Positions 38,038 through 50,397 of a DNA stretch of 64,000 nt are shown here, one piece after another. The first letter of the stretch is position 1; the number at the start of each line of letters is the position of its first letter. The stretch is from contig OZ220089.1 of the NCBI GenBank assembly GCA_964291625.2, positions 1,664,001 through 1,728,000 on the forward strand, read 5' to 3'. Both the position numbers and the translations under genes were made by a program. Below the pieces are notes generated by a model. The model had not been told where the DNA came from and made no database searches. It saw only the letters and a list, made by a program, of their open reading frames with translations. This DNA is from Candidatus Latescibacterota bacterium. Lineage in GTDB: Bacteria; Latescibacterota; UBA2968; UBA8231.

Positions 38038-38826
38038 TCAGCTCTCCTCGCCGCCGAGGAGGTCGCGCACGGCGGCGCCCGGGTCTTCGGCCCGCATGAG
38101 GGACTCGCCCACGAGGACGGCGTCGACCCCGGCCTCGCCGAGCTGGCGCAGGTGATCGTGGTGCTCGATGCCGCTCTCGCTGACCAGGGTCACTCTCTCC
38201 GGCACGAAGGGCCGCAGCTCGAAGGTCGTGTCAAGGCTGGTCTCGAAGGTGCGCAGATCGCGGTTGTTGATGCCCACGGGGGAGGCGTCGGCGGCCAAGG
38301 CGCGCTCCAGCTCCTCCCGGGTGTGGACCTCGACGAGGACCGACAGGCCCAGCTCCCGGCCCAGTCCCTGGAGGTCCTCCAACTGGCCGCCGTCCATGAC
38401 CGCGACGATGAGCAGGGCGGCGTCCGCGCCGATGACGCGGGCCTCGAAGAGCTGGTACGGGTCGATGGTGAAGTCCTTGCGCAACACCGGGATCCCGGCG
38501 GCCTGCCGCGCGGACTGGAGGTGGGCGTCGGAGCCCTGAAAGTACGCCTCGTCGGTGAGCACCGAAAGCGCGCGGGCGCCGTTGCCGGCGTAGGCGCTGG
38601 CGATCGCCGCCGGGTCGAAGTCCTCGCGGATCACGCCCTTGGAGGGGGAGGCCTTCTTCACCTCGGCGATGAGGGAGACGCCTTCGGCGGCCAGGGCGCC
38701 CGCGAAGTCCGCCGGGTCCGGCGCGTCGAGAGCCCGGGCGCGGACCTCGGCCGAGGGCGCGTCGTGGACGCGCCGGGCCAGGAAGTCCCGCTTGCTGGCG
38801 ACGATCTCTTCGAGGATGCCGGCCAT
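38038..38826 (-). CDS. trpC: Indole-3-glycerol phosphate synthase
   Basis: IAEVKKASPSKG, SVLTD, LRKDF, GINNRDL, SESGI, LVGESLM. Confidence 0.96.
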   Translation of the reverse strand: MAGILEEIVASKRDFLARRVHDAPSAEVRARALDAPDPADFAGALAAEGVSLIAEVKKASPSKGVIREDFDPAAIASAYAGNGARALSVLTDEAYFQGSDAHLQSARQAAGIPVLRKDFTIDPYQLFEARVIGADAALLIVAVMDGGQLEDLQGLGRELGLSVLVEVHTREELERALAADASPVGINNRDLRTFETSLDTTFELRPFVPERVTLVSESGIEHHDHLRQLGEAGVDAVLVGESLMRAEDPGAAVRDLLGGEES

Positions 38827-38836
38827 GCCCGCCGCC

Positions 38837-39847
38837 TCAGGCGTTGCTCACCTCCACGAGCCGGGCCAGGGCCTGCCGGGCCCGGCCCGAGGCGATCGAC
38901 TCGCGGGCGGCCTCGAGGCCGCCGGCCAAGTCCGATGCCACGCCGGCGGCGGCCAGGGCGGCGGCGGCGTTGAGGAGCACCACGTCGGCCCGGGGTCCCG
39001 CGGCGCCGTCGAGGACCTGCCGCAGGATGGCGGCGTTCTCCGCCGCGTCCCCGCCCTTCAGGTCCGCGGCCCCGGCGCGGTCGATCCCGAAGTCGCCGGG
39101 CTCGATCTCGTAGGTGCGCACCTCGCCATCGGTCAGCTCGCTCACCCGCGACGGACCGGTGAGGGTGATCTCGTCGAGGCCGTCGAGGCCGTGGACGACG
39201 AAGGCCCGCTCCGAGCCCAGGGCGCCGAGGACCCGGGCCTGCAGCTCGGTCAGCTCCGGCGCGAAGACACCCATGAGGTGGCGCGTCGCCCCCGCCGGGT
39301 TGGTGAGCGGCCCGAGGATGTTGAAGACCGTGCGCGTGCCCAGCTCCCGGCGGGGGCCGATGGCGTGCTTCATGGCGCCGTGCAGGGCGGGCGCGAAGAG
39401 GAAGCCGATGCCGGCCTCGTCGAGGCAGACTCCCACGCGGGCCGGGTCGGCCTCGATGTTGACGCCGAGCTCGGCGAGGACGTCGGCGGAGCCGCATCGG
39501 CTCGACATGGCGACGGTGCCGTGCTTGGCCACCGTGCACCCGGCGCCGGCGGCGACGAAGGCGACGGTGGTGGAGATGTTGAAAGTGCCCGAGGCGTCGC
39601 CGCCGGTGCCGCAGGTGTCGAGCAGGGGCGGCCGGCCGCCGGAGATGCGCGTCGCCTTGGCCCGCATGACCTCGGTGAACCCGGCCACCTCGTCCTCCGT
39701 CTCGCCCTTGCAGCGCAGGGCCACGAGGAAGCCGCCGATCTGGGCGTCGGTCGCCTCGCCGCTCATGATCTGGTCCATCACGGCGGTGGCCGTCTCCCGG
39801 TCGAGGTCGCGGCCGGAGATGAGTTGCTGAATCGCGTCCTGGATCAT
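38837..39847 (-). CDS. trpD: Anthranilate phosphoribosyltransferase
   Basis: DTCGTGGD, FNIST, KHG, GSADVL, RTVFNILGPLTNP, GLDE. Confidence 0.96.
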   Translation of the reverse strand: MIQDAIQQLISGRDLDRETATAVMDQIMSGEATDAQIGGFLVALRCKGETEDEVAGFTEVMRAKATRISGGRPPLLDTCGTGGDASGTFNISTTVAFVAAGAGCTVAKHGTVAMSSRCGSADVLAELGVNIEADPARVGVCLDEAGIGFLFAPALHGAMKHAIGPRRELGTRTVFNILGPLTNPAGATRHLMGVFAPELTELQARVLGALGSERAFVVHGLDGLDEITLTGPSRVSELTDGEVRTYEIEPGDFGIDRAGAADLKGGDAAENAAILRQVLDGAAGPRADVVLLNAAAALAAAGVASDLAGGLEAARESIASGRARQALARLVEVSNA

Positions 39848-39883
39848 GGTTGGTCTCCTCCTTCGGAAAGCAAGATCCCGGGT

Positions 39884-40446
39884 TCAATCCCGCGCAAGGA
39901 AGTTGCCCAGCAGGCGCTGGCCCTCGGCGGTGAGGATCGACTCCGGGTGGAACTGCACGCCCTCGACGTCCAGCTCGCGGTGGCGCAGCCCCATGACGAT
40001 CCCGTCCTCTGTCTCGGCGACGACCTCCAGGCAGTCGGGCAGCGACTCGCGGTCGACGATCAGCGAGTGGTAGCGGGTGGCCACGAAGGGGTTGGGCAGG
40101 CCGGCGTAGATCCCCCCGCCGTGGTGGTGGATCTCCGATGTCTTGCCGTGCATGACGTACGGAGCGCGGGTGACGACGCCGCCGAAGGCCTGGCCGATCG
40201 ACTGGTGCCCGAGGCAGACGCCGAGGATGGGGACCTGGCCGGCGAAGCGGTTCACCACCTCGATGGAGATGCCGGCCACGTCGGGCGTGCACGGCCCGGG
40301 GGAGATGACGATGCGCTCCGGCGCCAGCCCGGCGATTTCGTCGGTGGTGACGCGGTCGTTGCGGTACACGGACAGCTCGGCGCCGAGCTCGCCCAGGTAC
40401 TGCACGAGGTTGTAGGTGAAGGAATCGTAGTTGTCGATCACCAGGA

Positions 40447-40450
<4 letters not shown>
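39884..40450 (-). CDS. trpG: Anthranilate synthase component II (glutamine amidotransferase)
   Basis: [33 protein letters not shown]. Confidence 0.93.
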
Positions 40451-41994
<1,544 letters not shown>

Positions 41995-42281: not shown

Positions 42282-42335
42282 CCGGTGCGTATCTTTGAGC
42301 GCCGTCGGCAGCGGATCACCCACGAGAGGTCATCC

Positions 42336-42557
42336 ATGACCACCATCACAGTCCGTGTACCGGCCGGGCTCCGTGGAATGCTCGACAAGGCCTCTGCGGA
42401 GCTGGGGCGCACGCGGTCCGACATCGTCCGGCAGGCGCTGGAACGTTATCTGGAGGACCTCGACGACCTCACCCTTGCCGAGGAACGGCTCCGCGATCCG
42501 ACCGATCCGGTCCTGGAGTGGGAGCCCGTGAGGCAGAAGCTACTCGGACCCGAATAA
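42336..42557 (+). CDS. CopG/RelB-like ribbon-helix-helix protein (orphan antitoxin-like)
   Basis: TITVRVP...LGRTRSDIVRQALERYLEDLDDLTLAEERL. Confidence 0.8.
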   Translation: MTTITVRVPAGLRGMLDKASAELGRTRSDIVRQALERYLEDLDDLTLAEERLRDPTDPVLEWEPVRQKLLGPE

Positions 42558-42581
42558 GGCGTCCTGCACCGCGGGATTGTC

Positions 42582-43073
42582 CTAAGCCGAAAGCGCTGCC
42601 TTGAACCGCTCGACAACGCCCTCGTTGATGTGGAGTGGATTCAGCCTCTGCATCCGGCGTGCGACAGCCAGTGCACGGCGCCTCGTGAGGGCGCCGCCAG
42701 CAACCAGGTCCACCATGAGGCCGAGGCCGAATCTCGTCTTCACCCCGTGACGTCTGCAGAGACGCCGGAGCGCACCGTCATTCGTGACGCAAGTCCAGCC
42801 CTCCTCGCGACACGCGACCAGGCAGAGGCAATCATTGAAGGAAACACCGGACTCGACCTCGGACGCCTGCGCCAACCGCTCTGTTTCGACGGCGACAACT
42901 TCCATGCCGAGTTGCGTGCACTGCGCCGCCCCGAGGCCCCGCACCTCCTCCAGCACGGGAGCCAGGACTACCAGCCGGCCCATATGGGCCGCCACGAGCT
43001 CCAGGACTTCCAACGCCGCGTCCCGGTAATCGATGAGGACATCTGCATCGGCGAGAAGCACCGTTTCGACCAT
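42582..43073 (-). CDS. PIN-domain protein (putative ribonuclease)
   Basis: LLADADVLIDY, VLEEV, SFNDCLCL, VTNDGALR: PIN acidic-residue pattern. Confidence 0.75.
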   Translation of the reverse strand: MVETVLLADADVLIDYRDAALEVLELVAAHMGRLVVLAPVLEEVRGLGAAQCTQLGMEVVAVETERLAQASEVESGVSFNDCLCLVACREEGWTCVTNDGALRRLCRRHGVKTRFGLGLMVDLVAGGALTRRRALAVARRMQRLNPLHINEGVVERFKAALSA

Positions 43074-43079
43074 CTTGAT

Positions 43080-44210
43080 CTACCCCGCCCACTCACGCGC
43101 CTGACTCCTCATCTCTTCCCGGGTCAGGCCCAGGATCTCGGCTGCCCTTCCCATTGAGAGGTTGCCCTGCTCAAGGGCCTGCCGCACCAGCCGCGAGAGT
43201 CGGTTCTCGATGAAGTCATGCCTGGAGAGACCATCGGGCTCGCCCGAGCGGCTCCAGTTCCAAGCGAACTCGCTCTTCTCAAGGGCCAGAGGCTCCTGGG
43301 TTCTTCGCAGGGTCTTGCCGAAACGGCCCTGATGCTGCCGCTGGAAGGCGCCCCAGATACTCGATGTTTCGCGCTCCGTCTCCACGAGCCGGTATAGCAC
43401 GGTCTTGTAACTCACTCGAAAAATACGCTTGACCTTGAGGACCCGGACGAGGAGCGGGTGTCCCCGGGTCTCCTCCCACCGTGGAGCGAAGGCGGTCTCC
43501 GGCATCAGGAACTGGCTCGCAAAAGCGTCTGCCTCCCGCTCCGTAGCCAACGAGGGTTCGGTAGCCTCCCGCTGGTACTCGGCCGGATGGAGCAACAGGT
43601 GACCTAGTTCATGCACCGCGGTGAAGATCCAGCGCTCTACTGAGATCCGATCCCAGGTATTGACCACCACCGCCGGACCTCCATCGGCCTCCGCCACGCT
43701 CAACCCGAAGAAGGAATCGCTCTTCTTGTCGAGAAGCAGGAGCTTCACCCCGTTCTCCTCAAGCAACCCACAGATGTCTCGCACCGGCTCTTCTTGCCCG
43801 ATTCCAATGGCTCCACGGGCTGCCCGTGCGGTTTCAACTGGACTCCCAGATCGAGTGCCCACAGGCCGGAACCGGAAGGCGCACAACTCCCCCAGATCAG
43901 ACTCGATCTGGCTATAGGCCTCTAGCCACCTGGAAACCTCTGCCAGAATCTGGGCACGCCCGAGAACGCGGGCACTGGCCCGAAAACGCACGGTCTCCAG
44001 AACCCGCACCGGCGAGATGAGGTCGCCCACCGGAACCTGCAGTGCTCTCCCCAAGGCGGAGAGACTCCGCGACCTCGGTACAACCGCACCCCGCTCGATT
44101 TTCCCAAGCGCGATCCTAGAGATTCCTGCCCTCTCGGCGAGCTTCTCCTGGGTCAACCCCCGGTCTAGTCGCAACCGGGCGACATTCGCCGCAATGTGCT
44201 CACCAGCCAT
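43080..44210 (-). CDS. XRE HTH fused to ImmA/IrrE zinc metallopeptidase
   Basis: LRLDRGLTQEKLAERAGIS...IERG HTH; FTAVHELGH (HExxH); EREADAFASQFLMP. Confidence 0.9.
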   Translation of the reverse strand: MAGEHIAANVARLRLDRGLTQEKLAERAGISRIALGKIERGAVVPRSRSLSALGRALQVPVGDLISPVRVLETVRFRASARVLGRAQILAEVSRWLEAYSQIESDLGELCAFRFRPVGTRSGSPVETARAARGAIGIGQEEPVRDICGLLEENGVKLLLLDKKSDSFFGLSVAEADGGPAVVVNTWDRISVERWIFTAVHELGHLLLHPAEYQREATEPSLATEREADAFASQFLMPETAFAPRWEETRGHPLLVRVLKVKRIFRVSYKTVLYRLVETERETSSIWGAFQRQHQGRFGKTLRRTQEPLALEKSEFAWNWSRSGEPDGLSRHDFIENRLSRLVRQALEQGNLSMGRAAEILGLTREEMRSQAREWAG

Positions 44211-44228
44211 CGTCTTGCCTCCGCGAAC

Positions 44229-44266
44229 TTGACAAGGTAACCACAGATCCCATATTTGTCAATATG
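44229..44266. promoter_or_regulatory. Overlapping divergent promoters with a palindromic operator candidate
   Basis: Plus strand TTGACA (44229)-16-CATATT; minus strand TTGACA (44262)-17-TACCTT; palindrome CATATT-tgtc-AATATG at 44251-44266. Confidence 0.55.
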
Positions 44267-44345
44267 ATATCTTTACTTCCTCCCCTCACGGCGCCAAGCG
44301 GGCAAGGACCAGGGACCCACCCGGGCGCCAAGGAGAATCGTCACA

Positions 44346-45452
44346 GTGAAGCCAAGATTGACCCTCTACCCGCTCGGTAACGCAGACTCTTGCCTGATCG
44401 AGCTTACTGATGGGCGCCTTCTCCTCATGGACTTCTCCGCAGCGCGAGGAGACGACCCAGAAGACCTCCGTATTGACCTTCCAGATGCCCTTCGGGAGGA
44501 CCTTGGCACTCGCAGGGATGTGGACGTGCTAGCGATCTCTCACTTGGACGAGGATCACTACGGCGGAGTCAGCGACCTCTTCTATCTTGACCATGCGGCC
44601 AAGTACCAGAGCGACGACCGGATCAGAATCCGTGAACTCTGGGTGCCCGCCGCCGTCATCGTCGAGGAGGGACTCGACGCCACGGAGGCCAAGGTCATTC
44701 GGGCGGAGGCACGGTACCGGCTCAAGGAGGGCAAGGGCATCCGCGTCTACTCACGCCCCGAGGCCCTTGAAGAATGGCTCAACCAGCAGGGCCTCAACCT
44801 CACAGACCGAGCGCACCTCATCACCGATGCCGGATGTGTCGTGCCTGGCTTCTCGTACGCATCCGGTGGAGTAGAAATGTTTGTTCACTCCCCGTTTGCC
44901 GAGGCGGCTTCTGACGGCCGCGCCATCGTGAGGAATTCCTCCTCACTTGCACTGCAAGCAACGTTTAAGGTTGGGGACCGATTCACCCGTGTTCTCTTTG
45001 CCGCCGATTTACACCACGAGGACCTCGCCGGAGTTGTCCGCGTGACCAAAGCACACGCTAACGACGAGCGTCTCCAATGCGATGTCGTCAAGCTGCCTCA
45101 TCACTGTAGCTATCTCTCCCTCGCCCCCGAAAAGGGAACCATTTCGACCCAGCCGGTTCCAGAGGTCGAGTGGCTCTACCAGAACCAGGGTCAATCCAGA
45201 GCGATCCTGGTGTCGTCCAGCGACCCCATTCCCCCCGAGGACACTATTGATCCTCCTCATCGCCAGGCAGCTAAGTACTATGCAACAGTGGCCGGCCTTC
45301 TCCGAGGAGAGTTTGCCGTCACGATGGAGCATCCCAAGCAGAGCGCGCCCGAGCGGCTCATCATCGAGATTGGCAACCTCGGCGCCTCCCTAAAGAAGAG
45401 CACCATAGTCGGTGGCCCACTCCTGAGCCGCGCGGCACCGCGGGCCGGTTGA
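44346..45452 (+). CDS. ComEC-like metallo-beta-lactamase-fold protein with a C-terminal PRAG tail
   Basis: LGNADSCLI, ISHLDEDH (HxDxDH), NSSSL, FAAD, KLPHHCS; ends ...AAPRAG. Confidence 0.85.
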   Translation: MKPRLTLYPLGNADSCLIELTDGRLLLMDFSAARGDDPEDLRIDLPDALREDLGTRRDVDVLAISHLDEDHYGGVSDLFYLDHAAKYQSDDRIRIRELWVPAAVIVEEGLDATEAKVIRAEARYRLKEGKGIRVYSRPEALEEWLNQQGLNLTDRAHLITDAGCVVPGFSYASGGVEMFVHSPFAEAASDGRAIVRNSSSLALQATFKVGDRFTRVLFAADLHHEDLAGVVRVTKAHANDERLQCDVVKLPHHCSYLSLAPEKGTISTQPVPEVEWLYQNQGQSRAILVSSSDPIPPEDTIDPPHRQAAKYYATVAGLLRGEFAVTMEHPKQSAPERLIIEIGNLGASLKKSTIVGGPLLSRAAPRAG

Positions 45453-47665
45453 TGACCAAGGACTGCTGGCTGTCCCCACAGGGAGTCCTGTGCAAGGACA
45501 GCACCGCCCTTCCTCCCCGTGCTCGTGAGTTGGCGGAGCGCTTGGCAGCAAGCGAGATTCCTTTTGCACGTCTCCTATCCCTCTCAGAGTCCAACGGTAC
45601 GGGAATCGTCACCCTCGAGGTCGATGTGGAACTCGCACAAGATCGGGTCTACGACATCCGTCCCCGTGAGCGGATTTCAGTCGAATTCTGCCACGATGAT
45701 GCGCAAGCGCCGGAGGTTCTTGCCCTACGTAGTTCCTTTCCCCTTGTACCACATCTAAACTTACGTCCTTCCGAGCTCCCCAGAAGTCTTTGTCTCTCTG
45801 CGGCCCCTTGGAGTGAGCTGCGTACTTGGTGGACACCGGGTCGTTTCGTAACGGACCTGCGCGCGTGGCTTGAGGCAACGGCACGGGGTGATCTACATGG
45901 GGACGATCAGCCCCTAGAGCCACTACTCCTAGGTACAGGTGTGCCACTCATTCTACCGACCGAGATCAGGGAAGGAGCAAGACCGATTCGCCTTGACGTA
46001 CTCGTCGTCAAGACACCCGAGATGGAACGGCCCGTCCTCGTCGCACGAGACCCGGAGGACATCCAAGACTTTGAGCGGGCCTACGCCATCGAGTCAATTG
46101 CCACTGTTCTCGTCGGCACCGCGCAACAGCACGGAATCATCGCACGTACGCCACGTACACTCGCACAGCTCCATGACCTCCTTACTCCCGCCCGTATTGA
46201 CACGCTTGGGGCCCTGATGTCTCGACTTGAGGATTGGCGACAAGACGACGAACTACTTGCCCGAAAGCCCATTCTAATCACAGTTCTCCCTAAAGTCCGA
46301 AGCAACGGCCAGGCCGTGGAGGCCACGGACATTTTCGCCTTCTCCATCGAGGAAACAGTCACGACACTTGGGGAAAAGCTCGGTCTATGGCAGATAACAG
46401 GGGGACACGCCGGCTTTCTGATCCCCCGCGCTACCCCTAACGCTGACGCGGTCCCGCTGGTATGCCTACACCCTGTGTCCCAGCTCTCTATGGGAACCGC
46501 GGCACAGGTGACCGGACGAGGCCCCGACCTACGCAAAGCAGTGGCCGTGGGACAAGGGGCTCTCGGCTCCCAGGTGGTCTCAAATTTGATTCGCACTGGG
46601 TTCGGCTCATGGACCCTTATTGATCACGATGTACTCTTGCCCCACAACCTCGCGCGCCATGCCCTCATCGGCCGAAGCCCGGGCTTCCCGAAGGCTCAGC
46701 ATATGGCAGTCGCCTTGACGGATACAGTTCAGGACTCCGTGGTGCAGGCTCTGGTCTGTGATGTGCTCAATCCAAGAGACAAGTCGGAGGATCTCACTGC
46801 GGCTCTGAGTGAGGCGGATGTCGTGTTCGATTTCTCCGCGTCTATCGCGGTGGCACGCCATCTAGCCGATGATACTCTTGTGAAAGCACGCCGACTCTCG
46901 ATCTTCTTGGGTCCAAGCGGCAGATATCTCGTGATACTTGCCGAGGACGCCAGCCGGACCGTAACCCTCCATGAGTTGGAGGCACAGTACTACCGCCTGC
47001 TCATCCAAACGGAGAGTCTTCACGACTTCTACCTAGATGAGGCCATATCACTTCGATACGGCGGCTCCTGCGCCGACATCTCACTTCACATCCCTCAGGA
47101 TCGTGTGGGACTACACGCGGGGATAGCGACTGGCGCAGTACAGCGCCTTACAGGAGAAGGGTTCATTTCCGTTTGGCACCTGACAGATGAACTCTCTGTT
47201 CAGCGACACTGCCTATCGGTTGCGGTCAGCCAATGGTTTGAGGGATCGAACTGGACGATAGGTATCGACTCCCGTCTCGAGGGTCACCTCCTGACGCTTC
47301 GTCGCAATGCTCTGCCATGTGAGACTGGGGGTGTTTTGGTCGGGGTGGTGGACACGCACCGGAAGACTACTCTAGTTGTGGATGCACTACCGGCACCCCC
47401 GGATAGCGAAGAGTGGCCAACCGCATTCATCCGCGGCTCAGTCGGGCTTCGCGAACGCGTGGAGAGAATCACAGAGTGGACAGGTCAGGCCGTACACTAC
47501 ATAGGAGAGTGGCATTCGCATCCTTCAGGCAGCTCGTTGGGAATGAGTCCTGACGATGAGCAGGTCCTACGGTTCGTGGCCAAGCACATGCGATCAGACG
47601 GACTTCCGGGAATCGTCTTGATCGTCGGAGACACAGGGGTTCAGTGCCACATCGGAGATAGCTAG
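45452..47665 (+). CDS. Prokaryotic E2 - E1 (ThiF) - JAB fusion protein
   Basis: E2: FPLVPHLN...SLCL; E1: GQGALGS, DHDVLLPHNLARH, DFSAS, RYGGSC; JAB: ETGGVLVG, YIGEWHSHP, SPDD; TGATG coupling to the MBL gene. Confidence 0.9.
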   Translation: MTKDCWLSPQGVLCKDSTALPPRARELAERLAASEIPFARLLSLSESNGTGIVTLEVDVELAQDRVYDIRPRERISVEFCHDDAQAPEVLALRSSFPLVPHLNLRPSELPRSLCLSAAPWSELRTWWTPGRFVTDLRAWLEATARGDLHGDDQPLEPLLLGTGVPLILPTEIREGARPIRLDVLVVKTPEMERPVLVARDPEDIQDFERAYAIESIATVLVGTAQQHGIIARTPRTLAQLHDLLTPARIDTLGALMSRLEDWRQDDELLARKPILITVLPKVRSNGQAVEATDIFAFSIEETVTTLGEKLGLWQITGGHAGFLIPRATPNADAVPLVCLHPVSQLSMGTAAQVTGRGPDLRKAVAVGQGALGSQVVSNLIRTGFGSWTLIDHDVLLPHNLARHALIGRSPGFPKAQHMAVALTDTVQDSVVQALVCDVLNPRDKSEDLTAALSEADVVFDFSASIAVARHLADDTLVKARRLSIFLGPSGRYLVILAEDASRTVTLHELEAQYYRLLIQTESLHDFYLDEAISLRYGGSCADISLHIPQDRVGLHAGIATGAVQRLTGEGFISVWHLTDELSVQRHCLSVAVSQWFEGSNWTIGIDSRLEGHLLTLRRNALPCETGGVLVGVVDTHRKTTLVVDALPAPPDSEEWPTAFIRGSVGLRERVERITEWTGQAVHYIGEWHSHPSGSSLGMSPDDEQVLRFVAKHMRSDGLPGIVLIVGDTGVQCHIGDS

Positions 47666-47686
47666 AGGATCGTCTGCGGGGTGCTG

Positions 47687-49000
47687 ATGTACCATCTTGG
47701 ACTTGCGTTGTCTGGAGGGGGTTCTCGCGCCGCCGCATTCCATTGTGGAACGGTCACAGCTCTTTCCGAGCTGCATCTAGTTGACGAGATAGACGTTGTT
47801 TCTACGGTATCTGGGGGCTCTCTCTTTGGTGCTGCTTGGATGGCAGCAAAGATTGGGGGACAGAGCTTGGGGGAGTTCACCCGGAATATGCAGGCAGAAC
47901 TGTCCCGCGGGTTCATCGTTAGGTCAATCAGGCCGTCCCTGCTCCGCGTGTTGATCCCTACTGCATCGTACTCTCGAACTCACCTGCTCGCAGAGACCTT
48001 TGATCGCATCCTGTTCCAGGGACTTACCCTCGGGCGTCTCCCTGAACGCCCGGCTCTGTGCATAAACACGACAGTATTGAATACGGGCCAGATAGCGAAA
48101 TTGACCCGGGATGGATTCTCGGCTTGGGGAATCGCGGTCCCTGGAGGCGACCCCCCCCATGTGGTGCCTTGGGCAAACTTTCCCTTGGCACGTGCCGTCG
48201 CCGCCTCTGCAGCGTTCCCCATCGGCCTGCCACCTCTAACCCTAGGGCTAAGGGACTTCCCACGCGGGACCGAATTCAGAGGCTCGCTGGCTGGGGCGAA
48301 GGGAATCTGCCTTACTGACGGTGGTGTGCTTGAGAACCTTGGAATTCAGACTCTCTTGAAGAGCCGGCGCTATGCCTCGTGGAACCTCGTTGTGAGTGAT
48401 GCGGGTGTTCATGACCGACCTTGGCGGAATGGAGGGATTGTCGACTCAGCCAGGGGTTTCGGCATGTGGGTCTTGAGCGGACAGACTCTTGGTCGGCTCA
48501 TGCTGTTGATGAACGACAAGCAGAACCGGTGGGCAAGGCACGAGGTCCACAACGAGTTGATTCGCTCGTGGCTCGCTGATGAATTGAGGCGGAGCTCCAG
48601 CGCTTCTCTCAAGGGTGTAGCGAGCTACTTGGACCACGAACCAAACCTGCGACGACGGGCACTCCTGTTTGTACGCGTGGCCCAGAGTTGGAACTCCTTC
48701 TTTGCTTCAATCCCGAGATGGAGACTCGTGGAGCTCGCCGAACGTTCTGGAGGGTCCGAATCCGCGATACCTTCCAATGACGATCCCGCACGCATCGTAG
48801 ACTACCTGGAAGGGGTAGGCTGCGACCTCTCCGCGGCGGTGCACTATCATGGCCAACTTGGAGGAGACAGTAGTGCGGAAAGACTGAACCGGGTGAGGAC
48901 TGGATTCTCCTCCTTGTCCCCAGAGACCATTCGGCGCCTTGCAGCACATGCAGCTTGGCAAGTCCACGCGGCACACTCGGTCTATTTCCCTAAGGGCTGA
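47687..49000 (+). CDS. Patatin-like phospholipase
   Basis: LALSGGGSRA oxyanion loop, STVSGGS nucleophile elbow, ASAAFP, TDGGVLENLG. Confidence 0.88.
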   Translation: MYHLGLALSGGGSRAAAFHCGTVTALSELHLVDEIDVVSTVSGGSLFGAAWMAAKIGGQSLGEFTRNMQAELSRGFIVRSIRPSLLRVLIPTASYSRTHLLAETFDRILFQGLTLGRLPERPALCINTTVLNTGQIAKLTRDGFSAWGIAVPGGDPPHVVPWANFPLARAVAASAAFPIGLPPLTLGLRDFPRGTEFRGSLAGAKGICLTDGGVLENLGIQTLLKSRRYASWNLVVSDAGVHDRPWRNGGIVDSARGFGMWVLSGQTLGRLMLLMNDKQNRWARHEVHNELIRSWLADELRRSSSASLKGVASYLDHEPNLRRRALLFVRVAQSWNSFFASIPRWRLVELAERSGGSESAIPSNDDPARIVDYLEGVGCDLSAAVHYHGQLGGDSSAERLNRVRTGFSSLSPETIRRLAAHAAWQVHAAHSVYFPKG

Positions 49001-49116
49001 GCGACTGGATCGGTTGGGGGAGCTTGACCTCCCTCCCCCCCACCTCGCCGTTCACTTAGAGCCCCCAACGATGGGCACGTCGCCCACCCGGTGCGAGTTT
49101 GGCCCTCTCGAAACGT

Positions 49117-50397
49117 TCAGCCCGCCATCTCCTCCACCGCCGCCGCCAGCCGGTCCACGTCGGCCTCGCCATTGTAGATGTGGGTGGAAACCCGGAGCGC
49201 GTTGTAGCTCTCTCCCTCCACGTCGTCGTCGGGGACGCAGGCATAGGTCCCCTGGGCGACCTTGACGGCCATGTCGTGCTCCTCCAGGAGCCGGCGCGCC
49301 AACAGACTTGCGCTCAGGCCGTCCACCGAGAAAGTGAGGATTCCCCCGGAGAGCTCCGGCTGCGCCGGAGTGAGGATCCTCACCTTCGGAATCCGCTCCA
49401 GGTGCCCCCGCAGGCGGGCGCTCAGCTCCCGGCAGCGGGCCTCGACGCGGTCCCGGCCGAGGAGGTTGTGGAACTCCATGGCCACGCCGTGGCCGAGGAT
49501 CCCGGCCACGTCGCGGGTGCCGGACGAGGCCGAGTAGCCGGCGTATCCGGAATGCAGAAAGACGGGTTGCACCCGGTCCTGCACCTCCCGGCGGATGTAG
49601 AGCAGGCCGCTGCCCTTGGGGGCGAGCATCCACTTGTGGCTGCTGGAGGCGAAGGTGTCGACTTCGAGAGCCTTCACGTCGACGTCGAGCATCCCCGGGG
49701 AGTGGGCCCCGTCGCAGACGAGCAGGACCCCGCGGGGGCGCGTGATGTGGGCCGCGTCGGCCAGCGGATACCGCATACCCGTGATCGTGTCGACGTCCAT
49801 GAGGCTGCACACCCGCGTGCGGGGGGTCAGATGCCGCTCCAGTAGATGGAGGAACTCGTCCTTGTCCCTCAGTGGAGTCGGCATCTTCAGGTATTTCACG
49901 ACGACGCCGCGGTGCTTCCTGACATGCTGCCAGCAGACCATGCCGCCGCCGTGCTCGTGGTTGGTGGTGAGCACCTCGTCCCCCGGTTCCCAGTCGATGC
50001 CGGTGGCGACGCCGTTCATGCCCTCGGTGGTGTTGCGCGTGAGGGCGATCTCCGACACGTCCGCCCCGAGGAACTCGGCGGCCAGACGGCGGACATCCTC
50101 CATCCGACTCCCCAGGCCGCCGAAGGTGTTCTTCACCGGATCGCCTTCGAGCTGGTGGTCGTACCGGGCCACGGCCTCGGTGACGGCCTTCGGCACGGCG
50201 CCGCAGCTCCCGGTGTTGAAGTGCGCGAAGCCAGGCTTCAACTGGAACTCCCGCCGCAGGCGGCTCCACCTGGAGGCCCCCGCCCCCGCGGCGGCCAGGT
50301 CCTTCTCCAGCTCCTCCAGCCCCCGGGCCGCCCCGGACAGCCCGGGCCAGGGCATCGTGGCCGTCGCCAGGGCCTTGACGAATCCCCGCCTCTGCAT
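49117..50397 (-). CDS. Class V PLP-dependent aminotransferase (isopenicillin N epimerase/cysteine desulfurase-like) with Tat signal
   Basis: MQRRGFV twin-arginine motif; RNTTEG, HEHGGG, DGAH, SSHKW. Confidence 0.85.
   Translation of the reverse strand: MQRRGFVKALATATMPWPGLSGAARGLEELEKDLAAAGAGASRWSRLRREFQLKPGFAHFNTGSCGAVPKAVTEAVARYDHQLEGDPVKNTFGGLGSRMEDVRRLAAEFLGADVSEIALTRNTTEGMNGVATGIDWEPGDEVLTTNHEHGGGMVCWQHVRKHRGVVVKYLKMPTPLRDKDEFLHLLERHLTPRTRVCSLMDVDTITGMRYPLADAAHITRPRGVLLVCDGAHSPGMLDVDVKALEVDTFASSSHKWMLAPKGSGLLYIRREVQDRVQPVFLHSGYAGYSASSGTRDVAGILGHGVAMEFHNLLGRDRVEARCRELSARLRGHLERIPKVRILTPAQPELSGGILTFSVDGLSASLLARRLLEEHDMAVKVAQGTYACVPDDDVEGESYNALRVSTHIYNGEADVDRLAAAVEEMAG

Follow-up and report, generated by a model that had tools for sequence, protein, structure and literature searches.

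A 64,000-nucleotide stretch of DNA from a Candidatus Latescibacterota bacterium (assembly GCA_964291625.2, contig OZ220089.1, positions 1,664,001 to 1,728,000; hereafter the window) carries an island of five closely packed genes (Table 1). Three of them form an operon on the forward strand and encode a metallo-β-lactamase (MBL)-fold hydrolase, a single polypeptide in which E2, E1, and JAB domains are fused (E2-E1-JAB), and a patatin-like phospholipase. The other two run on the opposite strand and encode a fusion of a helix-turn-helix (HTH) domain with an M78 metallopeptidase (HTH-M78) and a PIN-domain protein. The open reading frames (ORFs) of the operon were found where the initial annotation had placed them, and all three products have intact catalytic motifs. 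The MBL gene ends with a TGA (45450-45452) that overlaps the ATG of the fusion gene (45452) by one base; from this ATG the fusion protein is 737 residues long, and from a TTG at 45449 it is 738. The patatin gene starts with a GTG 15 nt past the stop codon of the fusion gene. In our reading, the locus is probably a mobile 6.4-kb cassette in which the 6A-MBL anti-phage system is joined by a patatin in a variable "effector slot" and by a divergent, CapH/CapP-like repressor-protease with a PIN protein.

Table 1. Features of the cassette and of its surroundings, in window coordinates
Feature	Position	Strand	Evidence
Five-gene cassette	42591..48984	.	low GC, DNA homology to L001
PIN-domain protein, 163 aa, second gene of the divergent pair	42582..43073	-	Pfam PIN 3e-7
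Fused HTH (XRE) + M78/ImmA-IrrE metallopeptidase, 376 aa	43080..44210	-	Pfam HTH_3 3e-12, Peptidase_M78 6.5e-16
Promoter-like site with overlapping inverted repeat, candidate operator	44229..44272	+	consensus scan
6A-MBL MBL-fold hydrolase, 368 aa	44346..45452	+	NCBIfam NF058524
E2-E1-JAB triple fusion ("cap2_3")	45449..47665	+	NCBIfam NF058523, Pfam
Patatin-like phospholipase, 439 aa	47681..49000	+	Pfam Patatin 72 bits
trpC-like indole-3-glycerol phosphate synthase	38038..38826		
trpE	40447..41994	-	
RelB-like ribbon-helix-helix antitoxin ORF	42300..42557	+	NCBIfam 7e-13, 48.6 bits (cut-off 50)
Class-V aminotransferase	49117..50397	-	

The two-gene core is already known. By sequence it is 6A-MBL, since both of its proteins score above the cut-offs of the curated NCBIfam equivalogs for this system. 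The MBL protein reaches 351.4 bits (E = 5e-105) against NF058524 (6A-MBL_enzyme, "anti-phage 6A-MBL system MBL-fold protein"; cut-off 220), and the fusion protein reaches 604.8 bits against NF058523 ("cap2_3 protein"; cut-off 320). These matches support what the initial annotation had proposed, namely a 6A-MBL core, and with it the placement of the locus as a relative of the type II cyclic oligonucleotide-based antiphage signaling system (CBASS) that lacks a CD-NTase (cGAS/DncV-like nucleotidyltransferase). Iyer et al. 2006 (PMC1779556) list this arrangement as operon type 6a in a row of their Table 1, "usually two genes," with E2-E1-JAB beside a specialized MBL. Anti-phage activity of 6A-MBL in Pseudomonas aeruginosa is credited by two later papers to van den Berg et al. 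2024, and a published statement on its mechanism has the enzyme conjugated to unknown targets.

The family is large. It accounts for over 1,300 clusters of the protein collection, for 494 stretches confirmed in species genomes, and for 361 plasmid records. Our locus survey covers the best 80 of the 494 confirmed genome stretches. An MBL homologue lies directly upstream of E2-E1-JAB in 78 of these 80 loci, and the remaining two are cut by contig ends. The distances of the two proteins co-vary (Mantel r of 0.74, and 0.48 without near-identical pairs). The window shares with 6A-MBL as described the same gene order, MBL and then the E2-E1-JAB triple fusion, and the tight coupling of the two genes. 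It differs in adding a patatin gene together with the divergent HTH-M78 and PIN pair. NCBIfam models no third component for 6A-MBL, and the words "patatin" and "phospholipase" do not occur in the part of the 2006 description at hand (PMC1779556). The patatin form is thus a variant of the known 6A-MBL system for which our literature searches found no printed description; van den Berg et al. 2024 and its supplements, which lay outside the scope of these searches, may hold one.

Pfam recognizes all three parts of the fusion protein, with Prok-E2_A at residues 53-173 (5e-23), ThiF at 365-479 (3e-13), and Prok-JAB at 610-696 (3e-6). The E2 (H...LC), E1, and JAB motifs read earlier from the translation are all invariant in an alignment of 26 homologues. 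The residues concerned are H102 and C115 in E2; G368/G370/G373, H399-N400...R403, and C541 in E1; and E625, H689-S-H691, S700, and D703 in JAB. PADLOC likewise identifies an E1-E2 protein (1.4e-29) and a JAB protein (1.8e-20), and the E1 part matches the Cap2 structures 7tsq, 7tsx, and 7to3 at about 1e-9.

The Pfam Lactamase_B match of the MBL protein is weak (20.4 bits, under the cut-off of 22.7). Its AlphaFold (AF2) model, with a predicted local distance difference test score (pLDDT) of 91.8, finds the MBL domain of ComEC as its best match in the PDB (9ic4, E = 1.3e-14), so that the earlier description of the protein as "ComEC-like" holds. The next MBL fold matches are Pce phosphorylcholine esterase and other phosphodiesterases. 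With the nuclease domain of ComEC as its nearest fold, followed by phosphodiesterases, the modeled protein is most likely a nuclease or phosphodiesterase. The residues H66-x-D68-x-D70-H71, D221, and H252-H253 show no or almost no variation among 42 sequences.

In type II CBASS, the chemistry of Cap2 (E1-E2) and Cap3 (JAB) acts on the C-terminal tail of the CD-NTase. A comparable tail is found on the MBL. In the model, the MBL-fold elements extend to residue 349, and inspection of the secondary structure reveals no separate beta-grasp module. About the last 18 residues are disordered, with 10-residue blocks over 351-368 averaging a pLDDT of 51-56 and residues 354-361 falling below 50. The window MBL ends in ...APRAG, and the tail motif [RK][AVMH]G occurs in 76 of 77 MBL ORFs, mostly as ...PRAG. 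It forms the exact C-terminal end in 47 of the 77, is followed by 1-6 residues in 29, and is absent from one truncated ORF. Extended tails are seen in L004, L012, L015, L020, L027, L078, and other loci, and two MBLs repeat the motif (…APRAGSRAG and …APRAGLRAG). Among the 42 sequences, G368 is invariant and R366 nearly so. Because the tail is disordered and its ...PRAG terminus conserved, we infer that the E1-E2 enzyme takes the MBL as its substrate, in the place that the CD-NTase holds in type II CBASS; the initial annotation had likewise put the MBL in the place of the cyclase. The residues beyond RAG/RVG suggest that a precursor is processed by the JAB domain, as short extensions past the motif would fit such processing.

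What follows the core is variable across the 80 loci. Directly 3′ of it and on the same strand lies a patatin in 17 loci, a member of a family of about 250 residues with 3-4 hydrophobic helices (the transmembrane, or TM, family) in 19, a PDC-M48A-like membrane protein in 3, and some other ORF with at least two helices in 7. These 46 of the 80 loci therefore have a membrane-directed gene directly after the core. Another 7 loci have an ORF without such helices in this position, 3 have a patatin elsewhere in the locus, 23 have no same-strand gene within 200 nt, and 1 has too little sequence. Patatin and the TM family never share a locus in this survey. One member of the TM family matches PADLOC Csx27/tm_4. 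Of the 17 adjacent patatin genes, 8 begin before the upstream gene has ended, and 13 have a gap of 15 nt or less. Third-gene labels are scattered on the E2-E1-JAB FastTree of 74 proteins (31 changes vs a shuffled mean of 33.2), and near-identical cores, such as L037 and L044, carry different third genes. Among annotated plasmids, the form in Escherichia coli consists of two genes and is accompanied by a WYL regulator; Bradyrhizobium has an operon of MBL, E2-E1-JAB, and patatin with a 4-bp overlap; and in Deinococcus the core is joined by a small ORF as well as by a patatin.

This gene linkage shows that the patatin is a genuine operon member, a coupled and swappable module in a variable 3′ slot. 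The initial annotation had allowed that patatin might not be linked to such loci elsewhere. This objection fails, as a patatin is present in 20 of the 80 loci, and 17 of these patatins stand directly 3′ of the core on the same strand. Since 23 of the loci lack any third gene in the next 200 nt, the MBL could be an effector in its own right.

The PADLOC candidate system PDC-M48, which consists of a membrane protein (M48A) and an MBL (M48B), often lies directly after 6A-MBL cores. PDC-M48A is directly 3′ of the core in L007, L008, and L034, and a second MBL is present in 15 loci. PDC-M48 and 6A-MBL may form one larger system. We considered whether the PDC-M48B-like MBL and the MBL of the caspase-context operons described below belong to the MBL family of 6A and rejected it, as their hhalign matches were only distant and partial.

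The patatin of the window is a clear member of its Pfam family (9e-20, with a cut-off of 27.7 bits). The patatin domain covers residues 8-225, and a helical C-terminal region follows. G12-G-G-x-R16, S44, and D213-G-G do not vary among 17 sequences, so that the motifs reported earlier as intact (GGGxR and the Ser44/Asp213 dyad) are also conserved. The AF2 model (pLDDT 77) matches the PDB folds of CapV, CapE, PlpD, and patatin at about 1e-7 to 1e-6, with CapV 9kej at 1.1e-7. No PADLOC family matched the protein at E ≤ 0.01, the CBASS phospholipase models included, and no NCBIfam family scored above its cut-off. By sequence, then, the patatin is not a member of the CapV family.

The linkage was also followed from the patatin side, through the 80 nearest metagenomic patatins, 51 of which have at least 3 kb of sequence on one side. 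The linked patatins cluster on the patatin tree, with 7 label changes vs a shuffled mean of 12.7, a value reached in 0 of 200 shuffles. By this clustering, they are lineages specialized for 6A-MBL loci. Within the clade of the window patatin, usable context is available for the window itself, for the five-gene cassettes of two genomes of the same family, and for L172 (65% identity) and L082 (47%). Both L172 (6281-10861) and L082 (2722-7278) hold a split operon, with a ThiF E1, a JAB protein, a short ComEC-type MBL, and a patatin, in this order. The MBL of the split operon has 277-321 residues and a PHHGS motif but no RAG tail. Its first gene encodes a small protein with a weak RWD/E2-like match below cut-off. 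An assignment of the 176-aa gene of the split operon as its E2 was not upheld, as the match to the A1 profile had an E value of 0.55 and the RWD match stayed below cut-off. In 11 of the 29 nearest E2-E1-JAB clusters, the longest contig is as long as that of a close patatin cluster, which suggests, indirectly, that these E2-E1-JAB and patatin clusters lie on the same contigs.

A different recurrent operon was seen among the loci of the nearest patatins, in L091, L099, L101, and six others (e.g., L099 2500-6975). It encodes a C14 caspase-like peptidase, a protein of about 390 residues, an LmuA-like MBL (PADLOC 2.5e-68), and a patatin, after which some of these loci have a HEAT-repeat protein of 1,024 aa. 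This caspase-MBL-patatin operon may be an undescribed defense system.

The divergent regulator pair pointed out in the initial annotation is present. In PADLOC, the HTH-M78 protein matches RmrA (1.6e-35), capP (6e-16, residues 165-281), and capH (5.5e-7, residues 7-72), and the capP and capH matches are weaker than, and lie within, the RmrA match. CapH/CapP control of CBASS relies on an HTH repressor and an M78 metallopeptidase encoded divergently from the defense operon. In the window, a putative HTH repressor and an M78 metallopeptidase are likewise present, as domains encoded divergently from a defense operon. It differs in having both domains in one 376-aa chain, in the better score of this chain against RmrA, and in the PIN gene that comes next. 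In its domains, the HTH-M78 protein thus resembles CapH and CapP joined into one chain. The PIN protein has no match in PADLOC or NCBIfam; it is kept with the cassette in L001 (72%) and in G155 (76%). The intergenic region of 136 nt contains a promoter-like TTGACA-16-CATATT, the -10 element of which overlaps a 12-nt inverted repeat (44245-44256 and 44261-44272), and an AAGGAG-like ribosome-binding site precedes the GTG start of the MBL gene. The consensus promoter scan returned 2 sites vs 1.5 expected and is hence weak on its own; the promoter and inverted repeat are suggestive only as a candidate operator. Across the survey, 27 of the 80 loci have HTH-type genes in the vicinity of the core, and WYL regulators are found on plasmids.

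The cassette stands out from its surroundings. Its GC content is 0.60 over 42560-49010 (range of about 0.58 to 0.62), vs 0.70 for the whole window and 0.72 to 0.75 for neighboring DNA. It is about 76% identical in DNA to positions 5109-11536 of L001, with homology ending at the cassette ends, and the trpE and aminotransferase genes that flank the island on its two sides are not present in the L001 flanks. Two further genomes from the family of the window genome (L001/G161 and G155) keep the whole five-gene cassette. The E2-E1-JAB protein was found in 0 of the 9 same-genus genomes searched, and patatins of the window type (E ≤ 1e-30) occur in only 2 other genomes among 167 of the phylum. Since the flanks of L001 differ, the fusion protein is missing from the same-genus genomes, and the patatin is confined to two others of the phylum, the locus is, by comparative sequence evidence, a horizontally acquired, mobile island carrying the known 6A-MBL anti-phage system. 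A search of the island's surroundings for att-like sites or direct repeats on its flanks gave only short chance-like pairs; there is no tRNA in the window and no integrase in the flanks scanned. No terminator was found 3′ of the patatin gene, and the total of terminators found was no higher than in shuffles.

We rejected L001 as a case of cross-phylum transfer, because its genome, G161 (identical DNA), belongs to the family of the window genome. Elsewhere in the survey, the near-identical 6A-MBL loci L048 and L051 (branch lengths of 0.001-0.003) are assigned to Brevundimonas sp. and Planctomycetota, and their likeness reflects either a very recent transfer or a binning error. The island adjoins tryptophan biosynthesis genes, trpE and a trpC-like gene (38038-41994). 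At its left edge lies the RelB-like antitoxin ORF, convergent with the PIN gene, just below its family cut-off and with no obvious same-strand toxin partner.

For the working of the system, we propose the following scheme. By analogy with CapH/CapP, the HTH-M78 protein would hold down the operon until it receives a cue of stress or infection. To judge from the conserved tail and active sites, E1 would adenylate Gly368 of the MBL, and the resulting thioester would pass from Cys541 of E1 to Cys115 of E2 and on to a target amine. Conjugation of the MBL tail has already been proposed in print for "MBL pathways." The JAB domain would trim the extensions past the RAG motif and reverse the conjugates, while the ComEC-like MBL would, from its fold, act as a nuclease or phosphodiesterase. 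Once the system fires, the patatin could degrade membrane phospholipids through Ser44/Asp213 and so lead to abortive infection. In other loci, the 3-4-helix membrane protein would fill the role of the patatin. Our best guess is that the patatin would be triggered at the protein level, downstream of MBL conjugation, and not by a nucleotide messenger. Taken together, the loci suggest that 6A-MBL often kills through the membrane.

The closest parallel is type II CBASS with CapV. Both have a Cap2-like E1-E2, a Cap3-like JAB, and a C-terminal tail ending in glycine, their operons both include a phospholipase of the patatin fold, and both have an effector slot that varies and regulation of the CapH/CapP type, which is putative in the window locus. 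Unlike type II CBASS, the window locus has no CD-NTase, and a SMODS search found none in the genome; the putative conjugated enzyme is an MBL hydrolase; E2, E1, and JAB form one polypeptide; and the patatin misses the PADLOC models of CBASS phospholipases. Type II Pycsar and Thoeris with Cap2/Cap3 provide a second parallel, as the conjugation module there serves a different defense enzyme that has a conserved C-terminal glycine tail, according to the available parts of two reports (10.64898/2025.12.03.692087 and PMC11601596). The enzymes of those systems make nucleotide-derived signals for a dedicated effector, whereas the window enzyme is a predicted hydrolase.

Several observations weigh against the reading of the locus as a 6A-MBL cassette with a coupled patatin. 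The third gene is missing within 200 nt in 23 of the 80 loci, 7 more have a non-membrane ORF in its place, and the E. coli plasmid copy has two genes; with the third gene missing from so many loci, the core is able to stand on its own, and the family can dispense with patatin. The patatin has no recognizable sensor domain and no PADLOC effector match, and the promoter and operator calls are weak. Among the 80 nearest patatins, only 7 lie beside an E2-E1-JAB fusion and 1 (L082) beside a split Cap2-like E1 and Cap3-like JAB. Another 9 lie beside the different, LmuA-like MBL of the caspase context. These counts indicate that the broad patatin group serves several systems. Both trees rest on FastTree alone, with rows drawn from two sets that were chosen differently, and long branches were flagged. 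Patatin distances do not track those of the core without near-identical pairs (r of -0.02), and the shared-contig matches are indirect.

On these grounds, the patatin might be a passenger, a separate one-gene defense or lipid-metabolism gene that has only the island and the transcript in common with a self-sufficient two-gene 6A-MBL, without biochemical coupling. The loci without a third gene, the two-gene plasmid copy, the two-component NCBIfam model, the related patatins in other contexts, and the lack of patatin-core co-divergence once near pairs are dropped would all fit a passenger, and defense genes commonly cluster. However, its position is specific, with 17 of 20 patatins directly 3′ on the same strand and 8 with overlapping start and stop codons, and patatin and the TM family exclude each other from the same slot. 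The linked patatins, moreover, form clades of their own, the clade of the window patatin occurs with E1/JAB and MBL in two gene architectures, and the cassette is conserved as a unit. We regard a mere passenger as unlikely. Another explanation, close to the initial annotation, is that the MBL replaces the cyclase also as a signal generator, the conjugated MBL releasing a small product, other than a cyclic oligonucleotide, that binds the patatin (in other loci, the TM protein) and switches it on. The signaling systems CBASS, Pycsar, and Thoeris are laid out in this way, with an unchanging core and a membrane-effector slot that can be swapped, and the best fold matches of the patatin are CapV and CapE, which likewise have no sensor domain of their own. 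A preprint (PMC11601596) also counts the MBL among "signaling enzymes" in the part available. MBL-fold enzymes are, nevertheless, hydrolases, and the nearest folds of this MBL are the DNA nuclease domain of ComEC and phosphodiesterases. In many loci, such a signal would find no effector; the patatin matches CapV and CapE no better than PlpD or plant patatin, has no PADLOC CBASS-effector match, and contains no recognized ligand-binding domain. A signal made by the MBL is, in our estimate, quite unlikely.

The locus could also be a degenerate type II CBASS, in which a cyclase elsewhere in the genome supplies the activator of the patatin. The E1 and JAB parts do resemble Cap2 and Cap3, and patatin effectors are typical of CBASS. 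In line with the initial annotation, the cassette has neither a cyclase nor a ubiquitin-fold gene, and no ORF is left over for either; Bil/Bub systems differ in having a separate ubiquitin-like (beta-grasp) protein. A CD-NTase elsewhere, which had been named as a case against the initial annotation, was looked for with SMODS (PF18144). It gave no match in the genome (5.9 Mb in 2 contigs, 95% completeness), although a divergent cyclase could escape this search, the control of which matched in 3 of 14 genomes. The DncV-like NTFase profile PF21654 also had no match in the own genome, but its control matched in no genome, so this result is uninformative. The 80 loci have no cyclase-like recurrent neighbor either, and the conjugation tail is on the MBL and not on a CD-NTase. 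A degenerate CBASS is thus highly improbable. We return to the 6A-MBL cassette with a coupled patatin as the preferred reading and add to it, as a tentative possibility, that 6A-MBL, instead of being a nuclease system of two genes, is a conjugation-driven membrane-effector switch without a nucleotide messenger. An Atg7-like E2-E1 might join the ...RAG tail of the MBL to the effector or to an amine of the membrane (such as phosphatidylethanolamine, as for Atg8), turning on a dedicated patatin lineage or the 3-4-helix protein. The split operons of E1, JAB, short MBL, and patatin would then be a sister form.

The value of these observations lies in the membrane-directed third gene of most surveyed relatives and in the clean tail motif, both of which make the mechanism testable. 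With its conserved ...PRAG motif, in many cases followed by a short extension, the tail is a clear and mutable handle for loading by E1 and processing by JAB. Should a full census bear out the share of membrane-directed genes seen in the survey (46 of 80), the MBL may turn out not to be the sole executioner of 6A-MBL. If the proposed scheme is true, the system would provide a simple test case for ubiquitin-like conjugation that controls an effector without a cyclic nucleotide.

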